Shown here: positions 1-30,738 of the stretch, one piece after another
How positions within the stretch are numbered: the stretch's first letter is position 1
Layout of the letters: the number at the start of each line of letters is the position of its first letter
Assembly (NCBI RefSeq): GCF_003334305.1
Contig: NZ_QOWS01000002.1
From: Escherichia coli
Lineage (GTDB): Bacteria > Pseudomonadota > Gammaproteobacteria > Enterobacterales > Enterobacteriaceae
Reading direction: 5' to 3' (one strand)
Length of the DNA: 64,000 nt
Position numbers and translations under genes: made by a program
The notes under the pieces: generated by a model
What the model was told of the DNA's origin: nothing
Seen by the model: only the letters and a program-made list of their open reading frames with translations
The model's database searches: none

Positions 1-51
1 TGGCAGCAATATGCCAGGCCATATCACTATTGCGGATTTGAATATGTTTCA

Positions 52-984
52 TTACAGAGTTTCCTCAAAGAACGGAGCTAATACTGAAATTGCTTCAGCC
101 ACATAGGCTTTGCCGTCATAAAGATCCATATGGTTTGCGCCTTCAACAATGTGATAGCGTTTATCCTGGCTTGATGCCCGATCGTACAGGTCGTCACTCA
201 TCCATTTGCTCCCTGCCTGGCTGCCCGCCACAATCTGCATCGGCTGAGTCAGGTACACTTCCGCCATATGGTAAGCATCATAGGTAATAATCTGGTTAAG
301 GCTGCGCAAAGTAGCGTAACCCGGTGCTGTTGGATACTGCGCGCGAGGGGTGTGGTAATACTCCCAGGCCTGACGCAGTTCTTCGTTCGGCGCATCGGAC
401 TCCTTCATTGGTGCCAGTGGCATAACGGCATATTCTCCGCTGCTAATATCGCTGGTTCGGGCGTTTGAACCCGCTTCAACGTATGGCAGGGCATCAATAG
501 ATTTCACATTGTTTTCCCAACCATTACGGAACATCGAACCAATATTGACCGCACTAACGGTACCGATGGCCTTGATGCGGCGATCCTGAATTGCAGCATT
601 GGCTGTATATCCTGCACCGGCACAAATTCCCATCGCACCAATTCGGGTATTGTCGACATAAGAAAGCGTTGTCAGGTAATCAATCACGGCACTGATGTCT
701 TCAGTACGAATGTATGGGTTTTCTAACTGACGCGGCTCGCCGCCACTTTCACCTTGATAAGATGCGTCATAAGCAATAGTGACAAATCCCTTTTCCGCCA
801 GTTTTTTGGCATAGGTTCCGGCCGTTTGTTCTTTAACGCCCCCACCTGGGTGAGATACCACAATTGCCTGATACTGACGGGTTTCATCAAATTTTGGAGG
901 GAAATAGATCACTGCAGACAAAGAGATGGTTGGATTATTGCTGTTAGTGAAGCTGACTTTATTATTCATCATTCCGTTCCTCAT
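52..984 (-). CDS. ycjY: alpha/beta hydrolase (dienelactone-hydrolase-like) YcjY
   Basis: 310-aa ORF from track; recognised as YcjY; synteny next to ycjZ/mppA. Confidence 0.75.
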   Translation of the reverse strand: MRNGMMNNKVSFTNSNNPTISLSAVIYFPPKFDETRQYQAIVVSHPGGGVKEQTAGTYAKKLAEKGFVTIAYDASYQGESGGEPRQLENPYIRTEDISAVIDYLTTLSYVDNTRIGAMGICAGAGYTANAAIQDRRIKAIGTVSAVNIGSMFRNGWENNVKSIDALPYVEAGSNARTSDISSGEYAVMPLAPMKESDAPNEELRQAWEYYHTPRAQYPTAPGYATLRSLNQIITYDAYHMAEVYLTQPMQIVAGSQAGSKWMSDDLYDRASSQDKRYHIVEGANHMDLYDGKAYVAEAISVLAPFFEETL

Positions 985-1109
985 GGAGTTGTCGGTTCGT
1001 TTTAACGGTTGGTGATATCACTATAGATATTGATCATTAAGTTGATTAGACCCAAAATCATGATTAGACCTATCATTTAAATGATTAATAGATTGCATGG
1101 AGATACTGA

Positions 1110-2009
1110 ATGAAGCGTGAAGAAATCGCTGATCTGATGGCGTTTGTCGTCGTTGCAGAGGAGCGTAGCTTCACTCGTGCAGCAGCCCGCCTGAGCATGG
1201 CGCAGTCAGCTTTAAGCCAGATAGTGCGTCGTATAGAAGAACGATTGGGATTGCGGCTTCTGACGCGAACCACGCGCAGCGTTGTTCCAACTGAAGCGGG
1301 CGAGCATCTTTTGTCTGTTCTTGGCCCTATGTTGCATGACATAGATTCAGCCCTGGCATCCCTGAGCGAGCTGCAGAACCGCCCATCCGGGACAATACGT
1401 ATTACTACTGTAGAACATGCAGCAAAAACGATATTGTTACCAGCAATGCGCACATTCCTGAAATCGCATCCTGAAATTGATATTCAGCTCACCATTGATT
1501 ATGGTTTGACCGATGTCGTTTCTGAACGTTTTGATGCAGGCGTCCGTCTGGGTGGGGAGATGGATAAAGATATGATCGCCATTCGAATCGGGCCAGATAT
1601 ACCAATGGCTATTGTTGGCTCACCGGATTATTTTTCTCGCCGAAGTGTTCCAACGTCAGTGTCACAATTAATAGATCATCAGGCAATTAATTTGTATCTT
1701 CCCACATCGGGTACAGCAAATCGCTGGAGATTAATACGCGGTGGACGTGAAGTTCGTGTTCGCATGGAAGGTCAGCTTTTACTGAATACGATAGACCTGA
1801 TCATTGATGCTGCAATTGATGGGCATGGATTGGCGTATCTACCTTATGATCAGGTTGAGCGGGCTATTAAAGAAAAAAAACTGATACGTGTTTTGGATAA
1901 ATTCACACCAGATTTACCCGGTTATCACCTGTACTATCCACACCGTCGACATGCTGGCTCGGCATTCTCATTATTTATAGATAGGCTGAAGTATAAAGGT
2001 GCTGTTTAG
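1110..2009 (+). CDS. ycjZ: LysR-family transcriptional regulator
   Basis: 299-aa ORF with N-terminal HTH and LysR substrate-binding domain; divergent from ycjY. Confidence 0.8.
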   Translation: MKREEIADLMAFVVVAEERSFTRAAARLSMAQSALSQIVRRIEERLGLRLLTRTTRSVVPTEAGEHLLSVLGPMLHDIDSALASLSELQNRPSGTIRITTVEHAAKTILLPAMRTFLKSHPEIDIQLTIDYGLTDVVSERFDAGVRLGGEMDKDMIAIRIGPDIPMAIVGSPDYFSRRSVPTSVSQLIDHQAINLYLPTSGTANRWRLIRGGREVRVRMEGQLLLNTIDLIIDAAIDGHGLAYLPYDQVERAIKEKKLIRVLDKFTPDLPGYHLYYPHRRHAGSAFSLFIDRLKYKGAV

Positions 2010-2345
2010 CACTACTTGCTGATACATTAATTTAATTTCTCTCTTAACGTATTCTCAGTTCCTTTCAACGTTTTGGTTATTTTTTATTCTTCGTACAATG
2101 GCGACAGATGCTGATTATGATACCGAAAACTGGTTTGAACGTGCGAAGCCTGAACGTAGTGTTCGGTGTTCTATGTGCTTTACCGCATTTTGGCGTCGAT
2201 TATTTACACTAAATCTGATTTAATATATTGATACATAAAACATTTTATGCTTCCTGTGTCACTTTTTTGATGGAAGTTGTTTGCATTTCTTTAAGGCGAA
2301 ACAAATAATTACGCATCAATTTTAATGTCGGTTAGAGGGAAACTT

Positions 2346-3959
2346 ATGAAGCACTCTGTTTCAGTCACGTGTTGTGCGCTGTTGGTCAGCAGCATTTCTC
2401 TTTCGTATGCTGCAGAAGTTCCGAGCGGCACAGTACTGGCAGAGAAGCAGGAGCTGGTGCGCCACATTAAAGATGAGCCTGCGTCGCTGGATCCCGCTAA
2501 AGCCGTGGGCCTGCCAGAGATTCAGGTCATTCGCGATCTGTTTGAAGGACTGGTGAATCAGAACGAGAAAGGGGAGATTGTCCCCGGCGTTGCGACTCAG
2601 TGGAAAAGTAATGACAACCGTATCTGGACTTTTACCCTGCGCGATAACGCAAAATGGGCGGATGGCACACCGGTAACGGCGCAAGATTTTGTCTACAGCT
2701 GGCAACGTCTGGTGGACCCGAAAACTCTATCGCCATTTGCATGGTTTGCCGCGCTGGCGGGAATCAACAACGCACAGGCGATTATTGATGGTAAAGCTAC
2801 GCCTGACCAGCTTGGCGTCACCGCAGTTGATGCCCATACTTTGAAAATTCAGCTTGATAAACCGTTGCCGTGGTTTGTGAATTTAACCGCTAACTTTGCC
2901 TTCTTCCCGGTGCAAAAAGCCAACGTAGAAAGCGGTAAAGAGTGGACGAAACCCGGAAATCTGATTGGCAATGGCGCTTATGTTCTTAAAGAGCGCGTAG
3001 TCAATGAAAAACTGGTCGTGGTACCGAATACCCATTATTGGGATAACGCCAAAACGGTACTGCAAAAAGTGACCTTCCTGCCAATTAATCAGGAATCCGC
3101 AGCCACTAAGCGTTACCTCGCGGGGGATATTGATATCACCGAATCCTTCCCGAAAAATATGTATCAGAAGCTGTTGAAGGATATTCCGGGGCAGGTTTAT
3201 ACGCCGCCGCAGCTCGGGACCTATTATTATGCGTTTAACACGCAAAAAGGGCCGACGGCAGATCAGCGCGTTCGTCTGGCATTAAGTATGACGATAGATC
3301 GCCGCCTGATGACCGAAAAAGTATTAGGGACGGGCGAAAAGCCAGCGTGGCATTTTACACCAGATGTTACCGCCGGATTTACGCCGGAACCTTCGCCGTT
3401 TGAACAAATGAGTCAGGAAGAACTGAATGCGCAGGCAAAAACTTTGTTGAGCGCAGCTGGTTATGGTCCGCAAAAACCGCTGAAGCTGACGCTTTTGTAT
3501 AACACTTCAGAAAACCATCAAAAAATTGCGATTGCTGTAGCATCGATGTGGAAAAAGAACCTTGGCGTAGATGTTAAATTGCAAAATCAGGAATGGAAAA
3601 CCTATATCGATAGCCGTAACACCGGCAATTTTGATGTTATCCGCGCCTCATGGGTGGGGGATTATAATGAACCCTCCACTTTCCTGACATTATTAACGTC
3701 AACGCATTCAGGAAATATTTCACGCTTTAACAATCCGGCATATGACAAAGTTCTGGCCCAGGCATCGACGGAAAATACCGTTAAAGCGCGTAATGCCGAT
3801 TACAACGCGGCAGAAAAAATCCTCATGGAGCAAGCACCGATTGCACCAATTTATCAATATACCAATGGACGATTAATCAAACCGTGGCTGAAAGGTTATC
3901 CCATTAATAACCCTGAAGATGTGGCGTACAGTCGGACTATGTATATTGTGAAGCATTGA
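2346..3959 (+). CDS. mppA: periplasmic murein tripeptide-binding protein MppA
   Basis: Track ORF 2325-3959; start trimmed to ATG at 2346 (MKHSVSV..., signal peptide); OppA-family solute-binding protein. Confidence 0.85.
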   Translation: MKHSVSVTCCALLVSSISLSYAAEVPSGTVLAEKQELVRHIKDEPASLDPAKAVGLPEIQVIRDLFEGLVNQNEKGEIVPGVATQWKSNDNRIWTFTLRDNAKWADGTPVTAQDFVYSWQRLVDPKTLSPFAWFAALAGINNAQAIIDGKATPDQLGVTAVDAHTLKIQLDKPLPWFVNLTANFAFFPVQKANVESGKEWTKPGNLIGNGAYVLKERVVNEKLVVVPNTHYWDNAKTVLQKVTFLPINQESAATKRYLAGDIDITESFPKNMYQKLLKDIPGQVYTPPQLGTYYYAFNTQKGPTADQRVRLALSMTIDRRLMTEKVLGTGEKPAWHFTPDVTAGFTPEPSPFEQMSQEELNAQAKTLLSAAGYGPQKPLKLTLLYNTSENHQKIAIAVASMWKKNLGVDVKLQNQEWKTYIDSRNTGNFDVIRASWVGDYNEPSTFLTLLTSTHSGNISRFNNPAYDKVLAQASTENTVKARNADYNAAEKILMEQAPIAPIYQYTNGRLIKPWLKGYPINNPEDVAYSRTMYIVKH

Positions 3960-4009
3960 TGTGATGGGAACTGGCGTTACCCTTGTGGATAACGCCAGTG
4001 ATGTCTGAT

Positions 4010-5041
4010 TTAGCGACCCTGTTCCGGCGGTGTAATGTTATCCATATACAGCGTCTGGCTGGGGAAGGCAAAGTCCGCGCCGTGTGACTGTACAATATCG
4101 ATAATCTTCAAATAAACGTCTTGCTGTGCAGCAAGCCATTCAGCCCATACCGTGGTTTTGGTAAAGCAATAAACCATAATATTCAATGACGAGTCGGCAA
4201 ACTGGTTGAAATAAACCAGTAAGGTTTGTCGCTGGTCGATGGCCGGGTGATTTTTCAGCATCTCACGTACGGCTTCGACAATAACGCCCACTTTTGCCGC
4301 ATCCTCATAACGTAAACCAATGGTCGTGGTAATGCGGCGGTTGGTCATTCGTCCTGGGTTTTCTACGCTGATCGACGAAAACAGCGAGTTCGGTACGTAC
4401 AATGGACGATTATCAAAGGTCGTAATTTTGGTAATTCGCCAGCCAATTTCCGCTACTGTACCTTCGATATTTCTGTCCGGTGAACGGATCCAGTCGCCAA
4501 TACTGAAAGGACGGTCGAAATAGAGCATGATCCCGGAAAAGAAATTACTCAGAATATCTTTACCGGCCATACCGACAGCCAGACCACCAATACCACCAAA
4601 GGTCAACAAGCCAGAAAGGCTCATGCCGAAATGTTCGCCATAAAGCAGAACAAGCACCACAATAATGGTGATTTTGATAATGCGCGACATAATCCGCGCA
4701 CTGGTGATATCGCGACCTTTTTTAATCTGCTGTTTTTCAAACTGATTAATCAGCAAAAATAGCTTAATCGTCAGAATAACCGCAATCAGGGACGTACAGA
4801 TAAAATCGATAACGCCTGGGGTGATAAATTTGAGTTTATAGTTTTCTATAACATAATTAATAATGCTACCAACAGCACTGATAATTATGGTGTAGATTAA
4901 AAATTGCACCGCATGGAATAAAAAACCTTTTCTTTTACGATTTCCGCGGCGAAACCAAAAGCTCATCAGAATCAATGCTGCGCAGCTACCGAAAATAATG
5001 ACCAGATTAAGCGCATTATTTGTAAACAGTTCAGCGATCAT
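4010..5041 (-). CDS. ynaI: MscS-family mechanosensitive channel YnaI
   Basis: 343-aa ORF, N-terminal TM helices plus MscS domain. Confidence 0.85.
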
Positions 5042-5284
5042 TGTTTTATCAGGCTCCTCCAGATAATTGTCGTCATGCCGGAAACCCCTGGCGGGGCTAT
5101 TTTACCGCGACAATTCATTCAGATCATCAATAGTCAGGGAAGGAAGTAGCAATATTAGCTAACTAATCAATGCGTTGATTGTAAATCCAGCTAAGAGGTG
5201 AGGTTTTCAGAGCAGACAACGGTGAAATGTCATGGTATTGTTACGTTTAGGTAACAAGAAATTTGTCTGCACAAGGATTACATC

Positions 5285-5542
5285 ATGATTATGGCGAAAC
5301 TGAAGTCAGCGAAAGGGAAGAAATTTCTCTTTGGTTTGTTGGCGGTTTTCATTATTGCGGCGTCGGTTGTGACTCGCGCGACTATCGGCGGCGTTATAGA
5401 ACAGTACAATATTCCGCTGTCTGAGTGGACGACATCAATGTATGTGATTCAGTCATCGATGATTTTTGTTTATAGCCTGGTCTTTACTGTGTTGCTGGCA
5501 ATCCCGTTGGGAATTTATTTCCTTGGCGGCGAAGAGCAGTAA
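5285..5542 (+). CDS. ynaJ: small inner-membrane protein YnaJ
   Basis: 85-aa ORF with two hydrophobic segments; synteny between ynaI and uspE. Confidence 0.7.
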   Translation: MIMAKLKSAKGKKFLFGLLAVFIIAASVVTRATIGGVIEQYNIPLSEWTTSMYVIQSSMIFVYSLVFTVLLAIPLGIYFLGGEEQ

Positions 5543-5591
5543 GTAAAAAATAGGCCCGATAACTCGGGCCTTGTCAGTTATTGAAGAGTCG

Positions 5592-6542
5592 TTAATCGTC
5601 TTCTTCGTCATCCAGTTCAACGGGTGTCTGATACTGGTCAGGTTTAATGACCAACAGATCGCAGCGAAGATGATCAATCACCTGTTCCGCCGTGTTGCCG
5701 AGGAATGCTGCTGAAATACCGGTGCGTCCTACCGTGCCCAGAACCACAATCCCCGCCTGTAAGTGCTCCGCCAAATCAGGAATCACCTCTTCTGGCAGAC
5801 CTTTTTCTACGTGCGTCATGTTTTCATTAATGCCGAATTTCTGCCGCAGAGCTTTCATTGCCAGCAAATGTTGCCCACGAATGGCATCGTTATAAACGCT
5901 CGGATCAAATTCCGGCAGTTCAATCGCGATATTAATTGGCGTTACCGGATAAGCGCCAACCAGATGAACTTCGGTATGGTTGACTTGTTCTGCCAGTTCG
6001 ATCGTCTCTTTGACCAGTTTTTCATTGAGCGCATTATGATACGGCTCTTCACTGGCGAGATTCACCGCCACCAGCGCCTTGCCTCCTTCCGGCCACGGCT
6101 GGTCTTTCACCATCCACACCGGGCTTGGGCATTTGCGTAACAGATGCCAGTCCGTTGGCGTAAAAATCACCGCTTCCAGACGGTCATGTTGGTGCGCCAT
6201 TTTTAGCACCAAATCGTGCCCGCCGCTGATCACTTCCTGAATGATGGCTTCGAAAGGACGGTTATGCCAGACCACTTTAATTTCAATGGGAACGCCAGCA
6301 TTGAGATAATATTTTGCCTGCTCGTGGATCCAGGCTGTACGCTGGCTGATGACGCCCTGACGCATAGCCGTACGTTCGTCCGGGGAGAGCAGGGTGGTCA
6401 TTTCGTATGAGAAGTCATAGATCGGCAAAAAGGCTTTAATTTTGCCACCAATCCGTTGATGTAAATAAACAGCTCGCCGCAATGCTGGTTGGTCGTCCTG
6501 GTTAGGATCGATAACAACGAGCATGTTCTGATACATAGCCAT
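5592..6542 (-). CDS. uspE: universal stress protein E (tandem Usp domains)
   Basis: Track ORF 5592-6569; start trimmed to [10 protein letters not shown] (316 aa). Confidence 0.85.
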
Positions 6543-6693
6543 ACAGGGTCTCCTTACAACAACTGTCAACGCAGTTTGTAATTAAAAGATTAACCCATAT
6601 CTGGTGAATGAAACAGTGATGAACCTTCTGCCAGATCAATAAATCAGAAAAATTTAATGATATGACAGAAGGATAGTGAGTTATGCGGAAAAA

Positions 6694-7446
6694 TCAGGCA
6701 ACATTACGCGTATGACCAGCAAGCTGGGCCAGCGCATCGTTATTTTCGATGGTGATGTATTTACCTTTGACTGCCAGCATACCGCTTTTCTGGAAGCGAC
6801 CTAGCAGACGGCTGATGGTTTCTACCGTCAGGCCCAGATAGTTACCGATATCGCCACGAGTCATCGTCAGGCGGAATTCACGAGGGGAGAAGCCGCGTTG
6901 GGCAAAACGACGGGACAGGTTGTAGATGAATGCAGCCAGACGTTCCTCGGCATTTTTCTTCGACAACAGCAGGATCATGTCCTGATCGCCTTTGATTTCA
7001 CCGCTCATCAGACGCATCATCTGCTGACGCAGATTCGGCATTTTACCGGACAAATCGTCCAGCGTTTCGAACGGGATTTCACATACCATCGAGGTTTCCA
7101 GCGCCTGAGCGAAGCTCGGGTGATGGCCGCTGCCGATGGCGTCAAATCCCACCAGGTCGCCTGCTAAATGGAAACCAGTGATTTGCTCGTCGCCTTGCTC
7201 AGTGATGGTATAACTTTTAATCGTACCGGAGCGGATGGCATAAAGCGATTTAAGTTCATCACCAGCCTTAAACAGCGTCTGGCCTTTCTGAATAGGCTTC
7301 TTCCGCTCAATGATATTATCAAGCTGATCAAGCTCATGTTCGTTGAGTGTGAACGGGATGCAAAGCTGGCTGATGCTGCAATCCTGGCAATGGATAGCAC
7401 AACCGCCAGACTGAATGCGCCGTATAATTCGCTTTTCCGGGATCAT
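6694..7446 (-). CDS. fnr: FNR, CRP-family anaerobic global regulator
   Basis: Track ORF 6694-7503; start trimmed to [10 protein letters not shown] (250 aa); Cys cluster CAIHCQDC present. Confidence 0.95.
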
Positions 7447-7465
7447 AGGTCTGCTCAAGCCGTAA

Positions 7466-7479
7466 TTGATATTTGTCAA
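7466..7479. promoter_or_regulatory. FNR-box-like inverted repeat TTGAT-N4-GTCAA just upstream of the fnr start (autoregulatory site)
   Basis: TTGATATTTGTCAA read at 7466-7479, 20 nt upstream of the fnr ATG (rc of 7444-7446). Confidence 0.55.
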
Positions 7480-7640
7480 TTTTAACATCTTTTTAGGGAG
7501 CAAGTAAGTCTAAGCAAACCTTAACAGCAGAGAATTCCGATATTAGATGTAAATATATGTCTATCTATTTGAAAACCCTTAAGTTGTTAAGGGTAACTTT
7601 ACATAAAAGTGTGAACAAGCTGGCACAAATTGTTTAATGT

Positions 7641-8156
7641 TTACAGCAAAAGATAACCTTCGTGGCGCAATAACCACTCTTTTCGCTGAACTCCGCCTGC
7701 ATATCCGGTCATGGTGCCGTTTCGGCCAATAACCCGATGGCAAGGTACGACGATGCTGATGGGATTCGATCCGTTTGCCGCACCAACGGCACGCGCCGCG
7801 CCAGGGCGGCCCAATTGTTCAGCCAGTTGGCCGTAATGCATTACCTGCCCGCAGGGGATAGTGCGTAGAGTTTTCCAGACTTCGCGCTGAAATGGCGTCC
7901 CCCCTGTGGCAGTGGGAAGCGTATCAATAATGCTAAGATTACCGGCAAAATAATCACGAAGCTTGTCGCTTAAACCGCCTGGGTTGGTGGCAGAAATGCG
8001 CTCATAGCCTTCTTTGCGATAATGGATGTCCAGCAGCTGCACCATGCGTTCGCTGTACTCTTCCCATTCAACCGCCCGCAGGCGAAATTGCTCATCGCAA
8101 ATCACCCACAGTGGACCCAGTGGCGTGGCAATTTTTTCTTCAAGTAATCTCAGCAT
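7641..8156 (-). CDS. ogt: O6-alkylguanine-DNA alkyltransferase
   Basis: 171-aa ORF with PCHRV active-site motif. Confidence 0.95.
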
Positions 8157-8166
8157 CCGTTCTCTC

Positions 8167-9693
8167 TTAAGACAAACGTGGGTAAATCCCCGGACCTATC
8201 GGCAGACCAACAAGATACCACGCCAGCAACATCAGCAGCCATACCACCAAAAAGATAAGCGGATAGGGCAAGACTAACGAATAGTAAGTACCCAGTTTTG
8301 CGTCTGGTTTGTAGCGTTGCAGGAATCCAAGAAACAGTGGAACAAAAGGAGATACCGGCGCTAAAGGCAATACGGATGAGTCGGCAATACGAAAGAGGAT
8401 TTGCGCAAATGCCGGGTGAAAGCCAAGTAGCATAAACATTGGTACGAAAATGGGGGCCAGAATCGACCAGATTGCGGAACCGCTGGCAATAAACATGCAT
8501 AAGAAAGAGGAAAGCAACGCCAGACCGACAAACGCCGGGATGCCGCTAAGCCCTGAACTTTCAAGTATATCGGTCAGCCCCACGGCGATGAATTTCCCCA
8601 TGTTGCTCCAGTTAAACATGGCGACAAACTGGGCGAGGGGAAAAACCATCACGATAAATCCCGCCATCTCTTTCATCGGTTCAATCATTAAATGCGGTAA
8701 ATCCGCCTGACGTCGAATTGTGCGGGTAGCGATGCCATAAGCCAGCGAAACCACAAAGAAAAAAAGAATGATTAGTGGCACGATACCTTTAATAAAGGGT
8801 GATGGCATCACGGTGTGATTAATCGGATCGCGCAATATCCCGTTTTCCGGGATCACCATCAGCGCGATCGCAGCAATAAAAAGTAGCGATACGACACCTG
8901 CTATGCGTAAACCAAAACGCTGACTTTCGGTCAATGTCTGCAGTTTCTCATCGCTGTTTCCCTGCCATTGACCTAACCGTGGCTCGATGATTTTGTCGGT
9001 TATCAGGCCGCCAACAATCGTCAGTACGACTACGGAGCTGGCCATAAAATACCAGTTATCAATTACACTGACGTGCATTTGCGGATTGAACGCAGCCGCC
9101 GCTTCCGTGCTGATCCCCGACAGCAACACGTCGGTTGTGACAATCAGTAAATTAGCCGTGAAGCCGCAACCTACGCCTGCAATGGCGGCCAGTAAACCTG
9201 CAACTGGATGCCTGCCCACCGCCAGAAAAATCAGCGCACCCATCGGTGGCATGATCACTAACGCCGCATCGGAAGAAATGTGGCTGAAAAAAGCAATAAA
9301 CAGCACCATATAACTGGCGTAGCGGGCATTAACATGCGATGCCATTTTAACCATTAGCGCTGGCAGTAAGCCGACGCGCTCCGCTAGGCCGGCACCTAAA
9401 ACCAGCGCCAGGATCGCTCCAAGTGGAGCAAAACCGCTAAAGTTTTTAATCACATTGGGTAAAAACCAGTGTAATCCTTCCACACTGAGCAGGTTTTTCA
9501 CCACCACCGGCGTACCATCGGTCGGGTTTTTCGCACTGACGCCAAAGGCTGACAAAATTGCCGTCGTCACCATGAGTACGATTATCAAATAGATAAAGAG
9601 CAAAAAAGGATGGGGAACCTTGTTACCAATTCTTTCGACCCAGCCATAGAGCTTCCCGGATTGGGAGGACGACGGTATGGATGACATACTCAT
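8167..9693 (-). CDS. abgT: p-aminobenzoyl-glutamate transporter AbgT
   Basis: Track ORF 8167-9699, polytopic membrane protein; start codon approximate. Confidence 0.85.
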
Positions 9694-9729
9694 GGGCATT
9701 CCTCGGTTGTTGTGTTTGCGTTGTTGTTG

Positions 9730-11175
9730 TTATTTTAAAGGTGACGGTGTCACGTTTTTCGGGATAGGGCAGTGATACGGTTGCGTGTCCGTAACTTGCT
9801 GATGCTCTTGTTGGCATTCTTGCAATAGCCCTGAATCAATGAAGAGATTGACTGTGGTTGCTGCCATAGTTTTCGCCGCCAGCAGCATTCCTTTATGAGC
9901 AATCGATGTTCGCCCCTGGCTAACCAGTTGCCACGTATGTAGCGGTGTACCGACGGCAAAACAGGGGCTGAAACACTGGGCAACAGGCAGTTTCCAACTG
10001 ACGTCGCCGACATCAGTCGATGCCGCAAGCACGTTATCGGTGGCGGCATATGGAGCGACCTCATTCGCCAGTACCGTTTCACGATGACGTAGTGCAAAAA
10101 CCTTGCCGTTTTCGCCACCGGTTGCGGCGATATTATTCAGACTGTTTTGCCGATCGTTGGGGGTGAGCGTAGCCTGAATTTGTTTCGCAAAAGCCAGTTC
10201 TTCGGAGTTCCATTCCGGGGTACCAAAATGGGATAGGGCATGGTACATGGCATTTTCTAAGGTGCGATTCGGGAGATAACTGGAACAGGCTTTGTCGAAG
10301 CGGCATTCAACCGTGGTTTCGGTCATCAATGCCGCACCTTCGGCGATTTTGGCGACCCGATCATAAATATGCTGCACGTCGGTCATTTCGGGGGCGCGGA
10401 TAAGATAAAGCACTTCTGCCTGCGCCTGGACCACGTTGGGCGAGATCCCGCCGCTATTTGTGATGGCATAGTGTACGCGCGCTTTTTCAATAATATGTTC
10501 GTTGAGGAAGTTGGTGCCAGTGGTCATCAACGTTACGGCATCAAGGGCGCTGCGTCCCAAATGAGGGGAATTCGCGGCATGTGCTGCGATCCCTTTAAAG
10601 CACCATGATGCCTGAATGTTTGCCAGCGTGCGGGTATTGAACATGCCGGCAAAGGCTTCCGGGTGCCAGGTGAGTGCCGCATCCACATCATCAAATACCC
10701 CCTCGCGGACCATGAACGTTTTACCCGAGCCGCCTTCTTCGCCAGGACAACCATAAAAGCGCACTGTGCCGCCTTGCCCATATTGTTCCAGCCATTTCTT
10801 GACGGCTATTGCAGCGGCAAAGGCGGCGGTTCCCAGCAAATTGTGTCCGCAACCGTGACCATTTTCACCGGGCGTCGCGGATGTAGGTTGCGCGCAACCA
10901 GCTTGCTGACTTAAACCTGCCAGGGCGTCATATTCTCCCAGCAGGGCGATAACCGGTTTGCCTTGACCAAACGAAGCAATAAATGCATTTGGGATATTGC
11001 CTACGTTGCGGGTAACGGTGAAGCTTGCAGATTCCAGCGCCGAAGCCAGATGCTCCGCTGACCAGAACTCTTCAAAACGTGTTTCTGGATGATCCCAGAT
11101 TTGATCGGCAATATCGGTATAACGTTGGCGATCGGCTTCAATCGCATCGTCGATAAAACGATAGATTTCCTGCAT
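9730..11175 (-). CDS. abgB: p-aminobenzoyl-glutamate hydrolase subunit B (M20 peptidase)
   Basis: 481-aa ORF; operon abgABT. Confidence 0.9.
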   Translation of the reverse strand: MQEIYRFIDDAIEADRQRYTDIADQIWDHPETRFEEFWSAEHLASALESASFTVTRNVGNIPNAFIASFGQGKPVIALLGEYDALAGLSQQAGCAQPTSATPGENGHGCGHNLLGTAAFAAAIAVKKWLEQYGQGGTVRFYGCPGEEGGSGKTFMVREGVFDDVDAALTWHPEAFAGMFNTRTLANIQASWCFKGIAAHAANSPHLGRSALDAVTLMTTGTNFLNEHIIEKARVHYAITNSGGISPNVVQAQAEVLYLIRAPEMTDVQHIYDRVAKIAEGAALMTETTVECRFDKACSSYLPNRTLENAMYHALSHFGTPEWNSEELAFAKQIQATLTPNDRQNSLNNIAATGGENGKVFALRHRETVLANEVAPYAATDNVLAASTDVGDVSWKLPVAQCFSPCFAVGTPLHTWQLVSQGRTSIAHKGMLLAAKTMAATTVNLFIDSGLLQECQQEHQQVTDTQPYHCPIPKNVTPSPLK

Positions 11176-12485
11176 CAGATACCTCGCGTCCAGGGAAAAT
11201 TGAGCGCGGTGCGCGCCAGCGTTTCGACGGCAATAGCGAGAACCTGCTCGTCAAAATCGAATTTTTCGTTGTGATGACCTGCCGCCAGCTGTGTGCCAAA
11301 CACCACGTAGGAGGCTTGCCCTTGATGTTGCTGCACGCGGGCCATCATTAATGTGGCATCTTCGGAACCCGCAGGCGCTTCAACACGTTCAATGGCCTGA
11401 TTGACCCCCGCGACCTGAGCCGCCTGACTTTGCAACCATGCGACCCATTGCGGCGAAGGAGAACTGGCGGTAGCTGCACCCATCAGACGAGTTTCAACGC
11501 CGACACCATACATGGTTGCTGCGCCCTGAATCGCTTGTTGTGCACGGTCAAAAACATATTGATTAATGACGTCGCTGGCCCCGCGTGTTTCCACTTTCAG
11601 CAACGCCGAGGCAGGAACAACGTTACGACCGCTTCCTGCCTGCATAACGCCCACGTTTACTCTGGAAGCTCCTTCGCTGTGCGGGGCGATTGCATGCAGT
11701 GCAAGAGTGGCTTGTGCTGCCGCCAACAAGGCATTGTGACCGTCTTCTGGTTTTGCGCCTGCGTGAGCGGCGGTACCGGTGAAGTGCGCGTCAAATTTGG
11801 TGGTTGCCATAAAATTATCACTGCCGCACACCACGGTGCCCGCAGGTACGCCAGTGCCAATGTGCACGGCAGTAAAATAATCAACATCATCTACGACACC
11901 TGCATCGACCATCGCCCGCGCGCCACGCGTACCTTCCTCTGCAGGCTGAAAAATCAGTTTGATGACGCCATGTAGTCCGGACTCGAATTGTTTAAGGGTA
12001 TGCGCCAGCCCAAGCCCAATGGCGGTATGTCCATCATGACCACAGGCATGCATCATTCCGGCGTTACATGACGCAAAACCGTCGCGGTAGGGGCGATGGC
12101 TGACATCCTGCTCTTCACTGAGATCCAGCGCGTCCATATCGACACGGAAAGCCATCACCGGACCGGGGCGACCGGTATCCAGGGTGGCGACGATACCAGT
12201 GAAACCACCTTCAAAAACCGCAATCCATTGTGCTAGCGCACCCTGTTGACGAGCGCGCTCGAATTCGCGTTGTAGAGTGAGTTCATCAGGTAGTCCCATC
12301 CGGCTACTTTCATTAACTACTTCGCGGCCCAGCGCCAGTGAATAGCCGAGCTGCTGCAATTCTTCCGCAACAAGGGTGGCAGTGCGGAATTCCACCCAGC
12401 CAGACTCTGCATAGTGATGAAAATCACGTCGCCAGTGCGATAATTTTGGGGCAAGCGAATTAACAAATTGATTCAAAGACTCCAT
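11175..12485 (-). CDS. abgA: p-aminobenzoyl-glutamate hydrolase subunit A (M20 peptidase)
   Basis: Track ORF 11175-12500; start trimmed to MESLNQ; stop overlaps abgB start. Confidence 0.9.
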   Translation of the reverse strand: MESLNQFVNSLAPKLSHWRRDFHHYAESGWVEFRTATLVAEELQQLGYSLALGREVVNESSRMGLPDELTLQREFERARQQGALAQWIAVFEGGFTGIVATLDTGRPGPVMAFRVDMDALDLSEEQDVSHRPYRDGFASCNAGMMHACGHDGHTAIGLGLAHTLKQFESGLHGVIKLIFQPAEEGTRGARAMVDAGVVDDVDYFTAVHIGTGVPAGTVVCGSDNFMATTKFDAHFTGTAAHAGAKPEDGHNALLAAAQATLALHAIAPHSEGASRVNVGVMQAGSGRNVVPASALLKVETRGASDVINQYVFDRAQQAIQGAATMYGVGVETRLMGAATASSPSPQWVAWLQSQAAQVAGVNQAIERVEAPAGSEDATLMMARVQQHQGQASYVVFGTQLAAGHHNEKFDFDEQVLAIAVETLARTALNFPWTRGI

Positions 12486-12544
12486 AACCTTTCCCGTCAT
12501 CAGTAAAAAGTGTGACCCGGTTCACGTAGCGATAGTTTTTACTT

Positions 12545-12557
12545 ATCACTAACTGAT
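12545..12557. promoter_or_regulatory. ATCA-N5-TGAT inverted repeat in the abgA/abgR divergent promoter region (candidate LysR-type box)
   Basis: ATCACTAACTGAT read in the 160-bp divergent intergenic region. Confidence 0.3.
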
Positions 12558-12660
12558 TTTTCACAGTTTTAACCGTTCATAAATTACCCTGACACAATCA
12601 TCTGCATTAAAGTAGATGCCAGTTTCTTTGGTCTGATAAATAACGGTTATCGGTGGCGTC

Positions 12661-13569
12661 ATGACTTTTCAGGTAAAAATTCATCAAATTCGTGCTTTTG
12701 TTGAAGTGGCTCGTCAGGGCAGCATTCGCGGAGCGAGCCGAATGTTGAATATGTCGCAACCGGCACTGAGTAAATCTATTCAGGAGCTGGAAGAAGGATT
12801 AGCGGCGCAACTCTTTTTTCGCCGTAGTAAAGGCGTGACGTTAACTGATGCCGGTGAAAGTTTTTATCAGCACGCCAGTCTTATTCTTGAAGAGCTGCGC
12901 GCAGCGCAAGAGGAAATTCGCCAACGACAAGGGCAACTGGCAGGGCAGATTAATATCGGCATGGGGGCCAGTATTTCCCGCAGTCTGATGCCAGCTGTCA
13001 TATCTCGTTTTCATCAGCAGCATCCGCAGGTAAAAGTACGCATTATGGAAGGGCAACTGGTGTCGATGATTAATGAATTGCGTCAGGGAGAATTGGATTT
13101 CACCATCAATACCTATTATCAGGGACCGTACGACCACGAATTTACTTTTGAGAAATTACTGGAAAAGCAATTCGCGATCTTTTGCCGCCCGGGACACCCC
13201 GCCATTGGTGCCCGTTCGATCAAACAGTTACTGGATTACAGCTGGACAATGCCGACGCCACACGGCAGTTACTACAAACAGTTGAGTGAATTGCTTGACG
13301 ATCAGGCGCAAACGCCACAGGTCGGTGTAGTCTGCGAGACGTTCTCAGCCTGTATCAGTCTGGTGGCAAAAAGCGATTTTCTCAGCATACTGCCTGAAGA
13401 AATGGGCTGCGATCCCTTGCACGGACAGGGGCTGGTGATGTTGCCGGTTAGCGAAATTTTACCGAAAGCGGCCTATTATTTGATTCAGCGGCGTGATAGT
13501 CGCCAGACACCACTGACCGCGTCATTAATCACGCAATTCCGGCGAGAATGCGGCTATCTGCAAAGTTAA
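12661..13569 (+). CDS. abgR: LysR-family regulator of the abg operon
   Basis: 302-aa ORF, divergent from abgA. Confidence 0.9.
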   Translation: MTFQVKIHQIRAFVEVARQGSIRGASRMLNMSQPALSKSIQELEEGLAAQLFFRRSKGVTLTDAGESFYQHASLILEELRAAQEEIRQRQGQLAGQINIGMGASISRSLMPAVISRFHQQHPQVKVRIMEGQLVSMINELRQGELDFTINTYYQGPYDHEFTFEKLLEKQFAIFCRPGHPAIGARSIKQLLDYSWTMPTPHGSYYKQLSELLDDQAQTPQVGVVCETFSACISLVAKSDFLSILPEEMGCDPLHGQGLVMLPVSEILPKAAYYLIQRRDSRQTPLTASLITQFRRECGYLQS

Positions 13570-13898
13570 AACTGCATAAAAAAATAGAGTCTGTCGACAT
13601 CCGCCAGACTCTACAGTACACACAGCAGTGCATCCGCGTCTTAAGTCCGGCATTGTCTCCTCTGCGCCGGTGACTGTGTTATAACGGTTTTAACCTTTAG
13701 TTGCCAATTTTCTTCAGTGACAGATTTCACGAAAATATAAGTTACATTATTAATATCGTGAATGAATAATCATGCATAAGCATTTTGCTTAAAATATCGG
13801 CAATATTTGGAACTTATTACTGGAATTTTGGGTAATACGTTGTTGGACCGACCCGGTCTGGTTATCATATCGCGCTCTTAATTGCGGGAGGATGTAAC

Positions 13899-14462
13899 AT
13901 GAACCTTGACGACAAATCGCTGTTTCTTGACGCCATGGAAGATGTCCAGCCGCTGAAACGTGCTACCGATGTCCACTGGCATCCAACGCGTAACCAACGT
14001 GCGCCGCAGCGTATCGACACGCTGCAGCTTGATAATTTCCTCACCACCGGATTTCTCGACATCATCCCACTAAGTCAGCCGCTGGAGTTTCGGCGGGAAG
14101 GGTTGCAACATGGGGTGCTGGATAAGCTGCGCAGTGGTAAATATCCGCAACAGGCGAGCCTGAATCTTTTGCGCCAGCCGGTGGAAGAGTGCCGCAAAAT
14201 GATGTTCAGTTTCATTCAACAAGCCATGGCTGATGGTTTGCGTAACGTGCTGATTATTCATGGCAAAGGACGGGATGATAAATCGCATGCCAATATTGTC
14301 CGCAGCTATGTGGCGCGCTGGCTGACCGAATTTGATGATGTTCAGGCATATTGCACCGCGCTACCGCATCATGGCGGCAGCGGGGCGTGTTACGTCGCAC
14401 TACGTAAAACGGCGCAGGCGAAGCAAGAAAACTGGGAGCGCCACGCTAAGCGCAGTCGTTGA
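13899..14462 (+). CDS. smrA: Smr-domain endonuclease SmrA (YdaL)
   Basis: 187-aa ORF with C-terminal Smr domain. Confidence 0.85.
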   Translation: MNLDDKSLFLDAMEDVQPLKRATDVHWHPTRNQRAPQRIDTLQLDNFLTTGFLDIIPLSQPLEFRREGLQHGVLDKLRSGKYPQQASLNLLRQPVEECRKMMFSFIQQAMADGLRNVLIIHGKGRDDKSHANIVRSYVARWLTEFDDVQAYCTALPHHGGSGACYVALRKTAQAKQENWERHAKRSR

Positions 14463-14482
14463 TCTCGAGACGCATCCGCGGC

Positions 14483-15715
14483 TTATGCCGCCAGCACGCG
14501 GTTGCGACCATCATTTTTCGCCCGATACAAAGCATCATCAACGCGTTTAAACAGTTCATCGATGCTTTCATTTCCTTCGTGATGCGCCACACCAATGCTG
14601 ACGGTAAAGCGTGGTAAGCCCGAAATACTCACTTTTGCCACGCTTACGCGGATAGTTTCAGCCAGCGAAAGCGCGGTATCCAGTGGGGTTCTTGGTAGCA
14701 ATAAGACAAACTCTTCGCCTCCCCAACGAAACACCAAATCGCCTTTGCGAGCGCAACTTTCGAGGGTGCGGGCGAGGGCGCATAACACCTCATCACCTTT
14801 AGAATGCCCATAGAGATCGTTAATGTGTTTAAAACGATCGGTGTCGATGAGCAACAAGCTGTAATCCTGAGCGATGGCGAGATGCTGCATTTGGCCTGGT
14901 TCCGTAATGTGATAAAACTGTCGCCGATTCAGTAATCCGGTCATCGCGTCATGGTGAGCAGCATGTTCCAGCTGCTCCTCCAGCCGTTTTTGCTCAGTAA
15001 TATCATGCACAATACATAACATGAGCTTGTCGCCATAAATTTCAATCGGTCCGGCATAGGTCTGCACATGACGAGTAGATCCATCCGCCAGTTTATGAAC
15101 AAAATTCAAAGGTTTATGACCGCCGGGTAAATGCGAAATTTCATGCATGATAGGCATGACGCGACGCCCGAGCATATTTATTTCCCAGGTATGTTTCTGG
15201 CACATCGTTTCATGGTTATAACCATAGAAATTGAGCGCGGCGAGGTTAGCATCGACGATTTGTCCATCTCGTGACGGGTCAATCAACAACATTGGTGCAG
15301 AGTTAGTCAGAAAAAAGCGCGCATAAAAACCTTGTTTTTTGCGCTGATAATTTGCCGAGCGACTGGCTTTTAACCCCAGCGTTGCCGGCGCTTCGATACC
15401 TTCGAAAATAATCACCGGTTCTGTTTCTGTCAGCTCTCGCAAAACAAGCCGACAGCTTAATGCTGTTTCCTCTTCTTTACGCTGAACAGTGAGGATTTCG
15501 ATAATATCGTGTTGGTTTTGCAGATCGGAGAGGTATTTCGGCAGTTCTTTTTGTGAGGAGACGGAATAGGGACCGGTTCGTAGCTGACTAAACGTGAGGT
15601 CTTGCATCAACAGTCGCGCCGCGCTATTGGCATAAATTAACTGTTCCTCAAAGGGCGAAACGATCCAGACAGGACTGGTGAGTAAGTCCAGGGTATTGAA
15701 GTTGTGCGTAATCAT
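14483..15715 (-). CDS. dgcM: diguanylate cyclase DgcM (YdaM), PAS-GGDEF
   Basis: Track ORF 14483-15775; start trimmed to MITHNF; GGEEF motif present. Confidence 0.85.
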   Translation of the reverse strand: MITHNFNTLDLLTSPVWIVSPFEEQLIYANSAARLLMQDLTFSQLRTGPYSVSSQKELPKYLSDLQNQHDIIEILTVQRKEEETALSCRLVLRELTETEPVIIFEGIEAPATLGLKASRSANYQRKKQGFYARFFLTNSAPMLLIDPSRDGQIVDANLAALNFYGYNHETMCQKHTWEINMLGRRVMPIMHEISHLPGGHKPLNFVHKLADGSTRHVQTYAGPIEIYGDKLMLCIVHDITEQKRLEEQLEHAAHHDAMTGLLNRRQFYHITEPGQMQHLAIAQDYSLLLIDTDRFKHINDLYGHSKGDEVLCALARTLESCARKGDLVFRWGGEEFVLLLPRTPLDTALSLAETIRVSVAKVSISGLPRFTVSIGVAHHEGNESIDELFKRVDDALYRAKNDGRNRVLAA

Positions 15716-15948
15716 TGAGATCCCATTATTTTTATCAATTTTTGTTGCTATCCGATCGCAAAAAAGCCACGTCATATGATCAGATAATTCTGATAATGAT
15801 AGACGCTATTTAACACTTCACACGGTTTGTATACGGAAAAGCATTTTGCTTTTTGTATTCAATTTAGACAGAATTTTATTAATCATTTCAGGGTAATGGG
15901 GTGATGAGATGTTGCGTAACAGGGCCAGAAGGCTAGACTACAAAATAA

Positions 15949-16953
<1,005 letters not shown>

Positions 16954-17142
16954 CAAAAGCAATTTTTCCGGCTGTCTGTATACAAAAACGCCGCAAAGTT
17001 TGAGCGAAGTCAATAAACTCTCTACCCATTCAGGGCAATATCTCCATTGCAGGTGAATGCAACGTCAAGCGATGGGCGTTGCGCTCCATATTGTCTTACT
17101 TCCTTTTTTGAATTACTGCATAGCATAATTGATTCGTACGAC

Positions 17143-17170
17143 GCCGACTTTGATGAGTCGGCTTTTTTTT
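17143..17170 (+). terminator. Rho-independent terminator-like hairpin plus T8 run downstream of zntB
   Basis: GCCGACT...AGTCGGC stem followed by TTTTTTTT. Confidence 0.6.
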
Positions 17171-17227
17171 GCCTGTTATTTATCAGCGTCTACCCTTTAA
17201 GAGTCCACCCAATGACCGGAGGGAAAT

Positions 17228-17401
17228 ATGACGACACTTATTTATTTGCAAATTCCTGTCCCTGAACCGATTCCTGGCGATCCTGTTCCAGTGCCCGATC
17301 CGATCCCTCGCCCGCAACCCATGCCTGACCCACCACCCGATGAAGAACCGATTAAATTGTCGCATCGTGAGCGTAGATCTGCGAGGATACGCGCCTGCTA
17401 A
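17228..17401 (+). CDS. hypothetical 57-aa proline-rich small protein (candidate upstream ORF of dbpA)
   Basis: ATG at 17228 preceded by GGAGG 7 nt upstream; codons read by hand to TAA at 17399-17401; below the size cut-off of the ORF track. Confidence 0.4.
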   Translation: MTTLIYLQIPVPEPIPGDPVPVPDPIPRPQPMPDPPPDEEPIKLSHRERRSARIRAC

Positions 17402-17430
17402 CTTTGCGTCGATGACCACGAGAATAGATT

Positions 17431-18804
17431 GTGACCGCTTTTTCTACCCTGAATGTTTTGCCTCCCGCCCAACTCACGAACCTTAATGAGTTGGGTTATT
17501 TAACCATGACGCCGGTGCAGGCCGCCGCGCTTCCGGCGATCCTTGCCGGAAAAGATGTTCGCGTGCAGGCGAAAACCGGCAGCGGCAAAACGGCGGCTTT
17601 TGGCCTCGGCTTGTTACAGCAAATTGATGCGTCGCTATTTCAAACCCAGGCTTTAGTGCTGTGTCCTACGCGTGAACTGGCGGATCAGGTGGCAGGTGAA
17701 TTGCGTCGGCTGGCGCGTTTTCTGCCAAATACCAAAATTTTGACGTTGTGCGGTGGTCAACCGTTCGGTATGCAGCGTGATTCGTTGCAACATGCGCCGC
17801 ATATTATCGTGGCAACGCCGGGTCGTTTGCTGGATCACTTGCAAAAAGGCACGGTATCACTGGATGCGCTGAATACTTTGGTGATGGATGAGGCCGACCG
17901 CATGCTGGATATGGGATTTAGCGATGCCATTGATGATGTCATCCGTTTTGCGCCTGCATCTCGACAGACGCTTCTGTTTTCGGCAACCTGGCCGGAAGCC
18001 ATCGCCGCAATCAGCGGACGAGTGCAACGCGATCCTTTGGCGATTGAAATTGACTCAACAGATGCTTTGCCACCCATTGAACAACAATTTTATGAGACAT
18101 CCAGCAAAGGCAAAATTCCTCTGTTGCAACGGTTATTAAGCTTGCATCAGCCATCCTCTTGCGTGGTGTTTTGCAATACCAAAAAAGATTGCCAGGCTGT
18201 CTGCGACGCGCTGAATGAAGTAGGGCAAAGTGCATTGTCGTTACACGGCGATCTGGAGCAACGCGATCGCGATCAGACTCTGGTACGTTTTGCTAACGGT
18301 AGCGCCCGTGTACTGGTTGCTACTGATGTTGCTGCGCGTGGTCTGGATATTAAATCGCTTGAGCTGGTGGTGAACTTTGAGCTGGCGTGGGACCCTGAAG
18401 TTCATGTACATCGCATCGGTCGTACAGCTCGTGCAGGAAATAGCGGTCTGGCGATCAGTTTCTGTGCTCCGGAAGAAGCACAGCGGGCCAATATCATTTC
18501 TGACATGTTGCAGATAAAACTTAACTGGCAAACGCCGCCAGCTAATAGTTCCATTTTGCCGCTGGAAGCAGAAATGGCAACGTTGTGTATCGATGGCGGG
18601 AAAAAAGCCAAAATGCGCCCGGGTGATGTATTAGGTGCGCTGACAGGAGACATCGGGCTTGATGGCGTAGATATTGGCAAAATCGCCGTGCATCCGGCGC
18701 ATGTCTATGTCGCGGTCCGTCAGGCTGTTGCTCATAAAGCATGGAAACAGTTACAGGGCGGGAAGATTAAAGGAAAAACGTGCCGGGTGCGGTTATTAAA
18801 ATAA
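17431..18804 (+). CDS. dbpA: ATP-dependent 23S rRNA-specific DEAD-box helicase DbpA
   Basis: 457-aa ORF, GTG start, DEAD motif (VMDEADRM) present. Confidence 0.95.
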   Translation: MTAFSTLNVLPPAQLTNLNELGYLTMTPVQAAALPAILAGKDVRVQAKTGSGKTAAFGLGLLQQIDASLFQTQALVLCPTRELADQVAGELRRLARFLPNTKILTLCGGQPFGMQRDSLQHAPHIIVATPGRLLDHLQKGTVSLDALNTLVMDEADRMLDMGFSDAIDDVIRFAPASRQTLLFSATWPEAIAAISGRVQRDPLAIEIDSTDALPPIEQQFYETSSKGKIPLLQRLLSLHQPSSCVVFCNTKKDCQAVCDALNEVGQSALSLHGDLEQRDRDQTLVRFANGSARVLVATDVAARGLDIKSLELVVNFELAWDPEVHVHRIGRTARAGNSGLAISFCAPEEAQRANIISDMLQIKLNWQTPPANSSILPLEAEMATLCIDGGKKAKMRPGDVLGALTGDIGLDGVDIGKIAVHPAHVYVAVRQAVAHKAWKQLQGGKIKGKTCRVRLLK

Positions 18805-18852
18805 TGAAATGTTGAATTGCCGGGTGCAAGAGTAAACATCTTATGCGGGATT

Positions 18853-18925
18853 GCCGGATGCGACGCTGGCCGCGTCTTATGCGGCCTCCATAAGAGTAGC
18901 CCGATACGCTTGCGCATCGGGCGCT
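18853..18925. repeat. REP-like (repetitive extragenic palindromic) elements between convergent dbpA and ttcA
   Basis: GCCGGATGCGACGCTGGCCGCGTCTTATGCGGCC matches the REP consensus as recalled; second GC-rich palindrome follows. Confidence 0.6.
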
Positions 18926-18932
18926 ATCCTGG

Positions 18933-19868
18933 TTATTTCACTTCAACCACATTCAGCCGTAACTCATCCAACTGATTTTCATCTTCTTCTGGCTGCCAGC
19001 CCGCCGGTTGTAGTGGGATCTCTTCGCGATCAAACGCCAGATCACCCCCGTTAACCACTTCAGAACCGTGGGTAATGCCTTTGAAATCGAACAGGTTGGT
19101 ATCGCACAGATGCGACGGCACCACATTCTGCATCGCGCTGAACATCGTCTCGATACGCCCTGGATAACGTTTATCCCAGTCACGCAACATGTCAGCAATC
19201 ACCTGACGTTGCAGGTTAGGCTGTGAACCGCACAGGTTGCACGGAATAATCGGGAACGCTTTTGCATCGGCAAATCGCTGAATATCTTTCTCGCGGCAGT
19301 AGGCCAGCGGACGAATAACGATATGTTTGCCATCATCGCTCATCAGTTTCGGAGGCATACCTTTCATCTTGCCGCCGTAGAACATATTTAAGAACAACGT
19401 TTGCAGGATATCGTCACGATGGTGACCCAACGCGATCTTCGTCGCCCCCAGTTCCGTTGCGGTACGATAAAGGATACCGCGACGAAGGCGAGAACACAGT
19501 GAGCAAGTGGTTTTGCCCTCTGGAATCTTCTCTTTCACGATACCGTAAGTATTCTCTTCAACAATCTTGTACTCAACGCCCAGCTTTTCAAGATACTCGG
19601 GCAGAACGTGTTCCGGGAAGCCCGGTTGCTTTTGATCGAGGTTAACAGCCACCAGCGAAAAATTGATTGGCGCGCTTTGCTGCAAATTGCGCAGAATCTC
19701 CAGCATGGTATAGCTGTCTTTACCCCCGGAGAGGCAAACCATGATGCGATCGCCTTCTTCAATCATATTGAAGTCAGCAATGGCTTCGCCCACGTTACGA
19801 CGCAGACGTTTTTGTAATTTGTTCAGGTTGTATTGTTCTTTCTTACTAATTTCTTGATTTTGCGACAT
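18933..19868 (-). CDS. ttcA: tRNA 2-thiocytidine biosynthesis protein TtcA
   Basis: 311-aa ORF with PP-loop SGGKDS and CxxC pairs. Confidence 0.9.
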
Positions 19869-20009
19869 TTAAAAGCGACTCAATTCGTTATATGGCATCA
19901 GAAGAGTATGCGTCATGCCGGAACGCCCAGCATAAGAAATCTGATATAAAAACTGTGGCGTGTATGGTACGGATTAGAGGGGAAAATGTCAGCACATTTG
20001 CGAAATGAA

Positions 20010-20037
20010 TCAAAAAGCCCGCAGCAATGTGCGGGCG
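20010..20037 (-). terminator. Rho-independent terminator of uspF
   Basis: GCCCGC...GCGGGC hairpin; T-run on the minus strand (A5 on plus at 20012-20016). Confidence 0.6.
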
Positions 20038-20043
20038 TTAGTG

Positions 20044-20559
<516 letters not shown>

Positions 20560-20583
20560 TTAGATCAAAGGAGGAAGAATAAG

Positions 20584-20611
20584 CAGAAAAAGCCCGCCAT
20601 AACAGCGGGCA
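20584..20611 (-). terminator. Rho-independent terminator of ompN
   Basis: GCCCGC-CATAACAG-CGGGC hairpin with T-run on the minus strand. Confidence 0.6.
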
Positions 20612-20618
20612 GGAGGAT

Positions 20619-21752: not shown

Positions 21753-21979
21753 TGAATAAATCCTTTAGTTATTTTATTTGCCTTTTATCCCCATTCCGGG
21801 GAGTGAAAACATCCTAAAGGAGAAGTTCAGTTAGCCGATAAATATCATTTGTTACGCCTTAAGTAAAACCTTAATCAAATAATTCCTCTGAAATGATAAT
21901 AAGTCTGGTGAATGTATCGAAGATAATACATACAAAATAAAAATTATACTTTTAATTTTCTATACGTTATTCTGCGCGG

Positions 21980-22089
21980 GTTATATGCCTTTATTGTCAC
22001 AGATTTTATTTTCTGTTGGGCCATTGCATTGCCACTGATTTTCCAACATATAAAAAGACAAGCCCGAACAGTCGTCCGGGCTTTTTTTT
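21980..22089 (+). ncRNA. micC: MicC small RNA (Hfq-dependent regulator of ompC)
   Basis: GTTATATGCCTTTATTGTCACAG...GCCCGAACAGTCGTCCGGGC plus T9 matches MicC as I recall it; located between ompN and ydbK. Confidence 0.85.
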
Positions 22090-22118
22090 TAGAATTGGAT
22101 AATCCTTATCCAGAGCAT

Positions 22119-25643: not shown

Positions 25644-25916
25644 ATGACACCCTTACATTGCGCAAATGAGGGGCGCACGAAATTGCTGCGCGCCCAGTAG
25701 TAATCTTTCAATTTTAGCAAATGGCTTTCTTCTGCATTTTCGCTTTTGTGTCCCCCACATCAGCGTAATGAATGTTTTGATCAAACAGAGGGCAAAAAAA
25801 TAGCCATAAAAAAGTAAAAATGCGGGGCAACGCGCAGGACAGCTCTCGACGCCGCCCTCTGTGCTGCCTATTATTTATGGCGGTGTCGTTTGGCTTGAAG
25901 ATCAGAGGAAGAAAAG

Positions 25917-26602: not shown

Positions 26603-26682
26603 TGTGGTTCTCAATTACAGTTTCTGACTCAGGGCTATTTTAAGAATAGAGGATGAAAGGTCTTTGGGGATTATCTGAATAA

Positions 26683-26705
26683 GCTCCCCTGGAATGCAGG
26701 GGAGC
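26683..26705 (-). terminator. stem-loop downstream of ldhA (weak terminator candidate)
   Basis: GCTCCCCTG-GAATG-CAGGGGAGC hairpin; flanking U-run is poor. Confidence 0.35.
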
Positions 26706-26712
26706 GGCAAGA

Positions 26713-30731: not shown

Positions 30732-30738
30732 GGCGATG

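Follow-up and report, generated by a model that had tools for sequence, protein, structure and literature searches.

In Escherichia coli K-12 BW25113, eleven IS5 copies have been inventoried, one of which occupies the intergenic region between ynaI and ynaJ, and the insertion sites are CTAA or CTAG (PMC11677980). In the MG1655 genome (NC_000913.3), the copy at this place is annotated as 'insertion sequence:IS5F' at 1396044-1397238, together with insH4 (b1331), between ynaI (b1330) and ynaJ (b1332). A strain in which the ynaI/ynaJ copy is deleted has also been constructed (PMC11677980). In some stocks of W3110 and MG1655, ynaJ, uspE and fnr have been deleted through recombination between this ynaI-adjacent IS5 and a second IS5 located left of ogt (PMC2072959). 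With regard to expression, the ynaI mRNA is abundant, and a strong RpoS requirement was found only for mscS and ybiO (Edwards et al. 2012, PMC3508906).

The stretch of DNA analysed here, which is 64,000 bases long and is called the window below, carries the unoccupied allele of this locus. In comparison with IS5F of MG1655, the locus and its flanks are identical to the base, and the CTAA of the window is the target that IS5F has duplicated; the window itself is devoid of the inverted repeats, of the transposase and of the duplication. Such an IS5 target site without an element is ordinary for the chromosome of a wild E. coli, and it is already known. Its importance is small, the ynaI/ynaJ IS5 being an annotated K-12 feature whose absence is normal elsewhere in E. 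coli. The features of the window are collected in Table 1.

Table 1. Features of the window and collinear blocks shared with MG1655
Feature	Position in window	Strand	Description or MG1655 counterpart
mppA	2325-3959	+	
ynaI CDS	4010-5041	-	intact, 343 aa; low-conductance MscS-family mechanosensitive channel
ynaI/ynaJ divergent intergenic spacer	5042-5284	none	243 bp, uninterrupted
SNP	5153		T in window; C in MG1655 and five other strains
8-bp palindrome TTAGCTAA	5155-5162		contains the target CTAA
Unoccupied IS5 target CTAA	5159-5162	none	single copy; K-12 counterpart CTAA-IS5F-CTAA
Second CTAA	5163-5166		directly after the palindrome
6-bp inverted repeat AATCAA N4 TTGATT	5165-5180		
ynaJ CDS	5285-5542	+	intact, 85 aa; DUF2534 small membrane protein
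Unoccupied Rac attachment site	19819-19861		3' end of ttcA; 43 bp identical to MG1655 attR; 23-kb prophage absent
12 bp GTCCAGATACTG	46614-46625		replaces MG1655 1465063-1474003 (ynbG and ydbA with IS2D, IS30C; 8,941 bp)
gapC	62332-63333	-	intact, 333 aa
Block 1	1-5162		1390882-1396043
Block 2	5159-19861		1397239-1411941
Block 3	19819-38100		1434959-1453241
Block 4	38101-46613		1456550-1465062
Block 5	46626-64000		1474004-1491380

The ynaI/ynaJ spacer compared with MG1655

Over all its 64,000 bases, the window is 100% identical to the chromosome of E. coli A7, a strain from orangutan faeces (NZ_CP028767.1:2238024-2302023). The coordinates of ynaI match those of the A7 annotation, and its ORF aligns with b1330 of MG1655. 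The initial annotation had placed about 244 bp between the divergent ynaI and ynaJ starts, had noticed the lack of a transposase ORF, and had stated that an IS5 stands between these two genes in K-12 MG1655. The short gap is real and was counted at 243 bp, the ORFs of 20 aa or more that reach into it are frame noise of 21-53 aa with no transposase among them, and the IS5 of MG1655 is confirmed by the RefSeq annotation. The spacer is not equally short in the latter strain: it measures 1442 bp, which corresponds to 243 + 1195 + 4.

The alignment of the window by megablast to the interval 1390000-1499000 of MG1655 resulted in five collinear blocks, the first two of which share four bases, the CTAA at 5159-5162, and leave out the 1195-bp IS5F of MG1655 (1396044-1397238) and nothing else. 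The MG1655 junctions read TTAG-CTAA-(GGAAGGTGCGAACAAG ... CTTATTCGCACCTTCC)-CTAA-CTAATC, and the window reads TTAG-CTAA-CTAATC, so that the expected target-site duplication is found in MG1655 as a 4-bp CTAA on both sides of IS5F. Because these four bases are duplicated at the MG1655 junctions, the target is the CTAA at 5159-5162 and not the adjoining CTAA at 5163-5166. In total, three CTAA are counted in K-12, the two that flank IS5F and a native second copy, and the window has the native CTAACTAA only. The terminal repeats of IS5F in MG1655 agree between the two ends at 15 of 16 positions. Once the IS5 and one CTAA are subtracted, the MG1655 spacer is 243 bp long and shows one mismatch to that of the window, at 5153, where the T of the window is the minority allele among the strains compared.

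At the exact position of the insertion, the window thus presents a YTAR tetranucleotide, and its flanks adjoin without a gap and are homologous to those of the occupied allele on either side. None of the attributes of an occupied site was found in it: BLASTN searches with IS5F and IS5Y revealed no 1195-bp element with terminal inverted repeats of about 16 bp (GGAAGGTGCGAAYAAG), no ORF touching the spacer exceeds 53 aa, compared with the 326 aa of the DDE transposase (ins5A/insH), and no flanking 4-bp target-site duplication (YTAR, typically CTAA or CTAG) is present besides the native CTAACTAA. Furthermore, BLASTN of IS5F, IS5Y, IS2D, IS30C and an IS1 against the whole 64-kb window returned zero matches, and the A7 annotation contains no transposase across the 64 kb.

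The target occupies the middle of the spacer, at a distance of 117 bp from the start codon of ynaI and of 122 bp from that of ynaJ, and it falls in the most AT-rich stretch. The GC content of the spacer is 41.6%, versus 49.8% for the window. Five YTAR sites are present in the spacer. The CTAACTAA was also considered as the footprint of an older IS5 excision, and this idea was rejected: the sequence is tandem in all six compared strains, including K-12, where it stands beside the new duplication.

Empty and occupied alleles across E. coli

With the spacer at its centre, a query of 843 bp found matches in 5423 of the 5426 complete E. coli genomes searched. The locus is uninterrupted, with one place covering at least 80% of the query, in 5056 of these 5423 genomes (about 93%), among them BL21, O157:H7 and Nissle 1917 (B2); the other 367 do not have it in one piece. 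The spacer has the same length of 243 bp, with 1-4 SNPs, in Nissle 1917, GPEC1337 and O157:H7 (Z1768), as well as in MG1655 and EC21Z-048 when the IS5 is removed from both. The occupied allele was searched with a 240-bp query spanning the MG1655 left junction, at least 80% of which was covered in 353 genomes; all 60 matches listed are K-12 laboratory strains, for example MG1655, C600, DH5alpha, J53 and DH1, or resemble K-12 in size and coordinates. The carriers were also ranked by means of two chimeric queries, which combined an IS5 end with the flank of the window or with that of Nissle and which detected 355 carriers each. Flanks closer to the window than those of K-12 were found in only two of the 355 junction carriers, and flanks closer to Nissle in none of the 355. 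On the basis of the top-ranked matches listed and of these two flank-ranking tests, almost all carriers of the forward IS5 junction, which number about 353-355 genomes, are K-12 derivatives.

Since the site is empty in 5056 of 5423 genomes and the junction is mostly that of K-12, the empty site is the species-typical state and would be the ancestral one, and the IS5 would be a derived K-12 trait. The empty spacer being the species norm, it tells more about K-12 than about the window strain, and its earlier presentation as the lack of an IS5 copy is K-12-centric.

The CTAA that received IS5F is also occupied in two other genomes. In EC21Z-048 (human, Zhejiang; 4.81 Mb; NZ_CP101269.1), an IS5 is inserted at the same CTAA (extracted-locus 6301-7495), with the orientation and the CTAA duplication seen in K-12 and with 5 substitutions relative to IS5F. 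From -217 on the side of ynaI and from +225 on that of ynaJ, the flanks of this copy resemble those of the window and not those of K-12, in an ungapped comparison of which only the IS-proximal portions were used, the remainder being swamped by a 1-bp indel in ynaI. The C at -10 of EC21Z-048 was examined as a sign of import from K-12 and was discarded as such, C being the common allele and the T of the window the unusual one. In the case of Eco_23-3571 (African green monkey; NZ_CM176496.1), the same CTAA is occupied by a 1196-bp ISKpn26 (extracted-locus 2801-3996), which is 91% identical to IS5F, is inserted in reverse and stands between two copies of CTAA. The latter insertion is unambiguously independent of the K-12 event.

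The genome of BHUCD02 (NZ_CM183444.1) was evaluated as a further independent insertion and was excluded from the count, its assembly looking reference-guided. The chromosome of this 'stool isolate' measures 4,641,766 bp, with genes shifted by just +59 relative to the coordinates of MG1655; it displays 53 SNPs in 6.4 kb versus MG1655, with non-K-12 SNPs in the flanks, yet its IS5 is identical to IS5F and was probably carried over from the reference. Another disruption of the locus was observed in NZ_OZ039848.1, where an IS1 is located inside the 5' part of the ynaI CDS (extracted-locus 381-1142).

Three events at one of the five YTAR sites correspond to p ~0.04 under uniform choice, in a sample that is small and unsystematic. 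Could the CTAA at 5159-5162, which is part of the palindrome TTAGCTAA and lies where the divergent promoter region of ynaI/ynaJ has its AT-rich centre, be a preferred target of IS5-family elements? We regard this proposal as possible and rather doubtful. If it were true, a local DNA structure or a bound protein would steer insertion to this place, and the insertions might then be selected through their effect on the expression of ynaI or ynaJ. The recurrent IS5 regulatory targets described in K-12 with Bgl+, swarming and propanediol-growth assays (PMC11677980) also combine an AT-rich intergenic regulatory spacer with a CTAA target; in contrast with them, the recurrence at ynaI/ynaJ amounts to three events among about 5,400 genomes and is known from sequence alone. 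The repeated use of one CTAA by IS5-family elements is suggestive, and it is the sole mildly new point of this analysis.

History and function of the spacer

The window very probably holds the native, never-interrupted ynaI/ynaJ spacer, IS5F having been inserted in the lineage that led to K-12. The triggering event would be the transposition, in that lineage, of an IS5 copy (IS5F, insH4) into the CTAA equivalent to 5159-5162 of the window, which would have duplicated the 4 bp and moved ynaI and ynaJ 1.2 kb further apart. The window strain, E. coli A7, would never have received IS5F. As to the direction of the change, we infer a gain in K-12 and not a loss in the window strain.

The empty site might instead be secondary, an ancestral IS5 having been lost by precise excision through recombination between the two 4-bp CTAA copies; the product would be indistinguishable from a never-occupied site, and the site has been struck repeatedly within E. 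coli. Such a loss is nevertheless highly improbable when confronted with a spacer of identical length, 243 bp, in 93% of the genomes and in all major lineages, with occupied sites limited to K-12 and two or three single genomes, and with the A7 chromosome, which is nearly free of IS5, IS1, IS2 and IS30 copies. In addition, IS5 is reported as moving mainly by copy and paste (PMC11677980). That a real IS5 was present here and was collapsed out by the assembler is scarcely credible. Repeats are indeed a known source of assembly errors, and BHUCD02 looks reference-guided, although in the opposite sense; however, the collapse of a repeat does not generate a perfect empty site with exactly one copy of the target-site duplication, the A7 genome is complete and closed, and the same sequence recurs in over 5000 genomes that were assembled independently, two of them with 100% identity over 843 bp.

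The spacer could also conceal some other element with a function, for instance a riboswitch or a gene for a small RNA or small protein, and this element, instead of the missing IS5, would be its real feature. A GC-rich hairpin followed by a T-run on the + strand (5076-5102) and several short inverted repeats point in this direction, but we consider this explanation very unlikely. The Rfam scan of 4000-7000 at E<=1 detected nothing in the spacer and, elsewhere, only two sub-threshold chance matches; the spacer ORFs are 21-31 aa long, with the exception of two that run out of frame into ynaJ; and chance alone should produce palindromes as short as 6-7 bp in AT-rich DNA. Terminator-like matches number 2, against a shuffle expectation of 0.8 +/- 0.9, and since this count is near the expectation the 5076-5102 hairpin is probably due to chance. 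When read on the - strand, it lies within the presumed 5' leader of ynaI. A second GC-rich hairpin, AGGCCCGAGTTATCGGGCCT, is found at 5552-5571 between the convergent ynaJ and uspE, with A/T runs on both sides, and it corresponds to the convergent terminator region of ynaJ/uspE that is mentioned in the literature on bidirectional termination.

The spacer must carry the promoters of both ynaI and ynaJ. A consensus sigma-70 scan of 4900-5700 gave no promoter-like match, so that these promoters are unplaceable from the sequence, and the literature searched provided no mapped promoter for either gene. Work on ynaI and ynaJ in K-12 deals with a shared control region that is split by a 1.2-kb IS5, and this element may modify the expression of ynaI or ynaJ. 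The same copy exposes the neighbouring fnr to deletion in some K-12 stocks (PMC2072959). The window also holds uspE, fnr and ogt beside ynaI/ynaJ; in contrast with K-12, it is without that IS5 and so without this route to the loss of fnr, a liability from which the window strain is free. A deletion was also observed in CY34 (NZ_CM181225.1), a genome whose label gives human urine and Taiwan as its origin and which shares 100% identity with MG1655 over 5.8 kb, IS5F included. In this genome, 13.75 kb are deleted (MG1655 1397381-1411132), from within ynaJ to within ttcA, and the genes lost include uspE, fnr, ogt and the abg genes. CY34 is probably a K-12 derivative.

Chromosomal background of the strain

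The window and MG1655 are about 99% identical, with about 1% SNP divergence, and are collinear except for four stretches of K-12 that are missing from the window: IS5F, the Rac prophage, a 3.3-kb paaZ-paaE segment and all of ydbA with its IS2 and IS30. From the short spacer, the missing Rac and ydbA-associated IS elements and the intact gapC, the initial annotation had deduced a non-K-12 background that is poor in IS elements over this region. This deduction is borne out by the SNP divergence, by the identity to A7 and by the K-12 markers, since IS5F, Rac, ydbA::IS2D/IS30C and the gapC pseudogene are all four absent or different in the window, in which no IS match was obtained. The absence of Rac is attested by an intact 43-bp attB in ttcA, and gapC is a 333-aa ORF, as opposed to a pseudogene in MG1655. 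Only the statement on ydbA has to be modified: IS2D and IS30C are absent, as claimed, because the entire ydbA is absent, and not because an uninterrupted ydbA is present. Combined with the lack of Rac and of ydbA and with the intact gapC, the empty spacer can serve as a lineage marker of a wild-type non-K-12 chromosome, that of strain A7.

With a composite IS5/IS1/IS2/IS30 probe, the A7 chromosome gives only 2 matches, compared with about 17 places in the median genome. Of 5411 genomes, 2489 (about 46%) have a Rac site without interruption. The paaY-pdxI junction is contiguous in 2027 of 5203 genomes; its sequence is variable, and many of the matches reach just 80-95% identity.

The paa gap is located at 38100/38101 of the window, where 3308 bp of MG1655 (1453242-1456549) are missing with a clean junction and no microhomology, thereby removing the 5' part of paaZ, the whole of paaABCD and the beginning of paaE. 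As a consequence of this deletion, judged from the gene content, the phenylacetate pathway is probably inactive in the window strain. This very junction occurs in a single genome of the 5426 complete ones, that of strain A7, and a different, smaller gap in the same paa interval is present in some other genomes.
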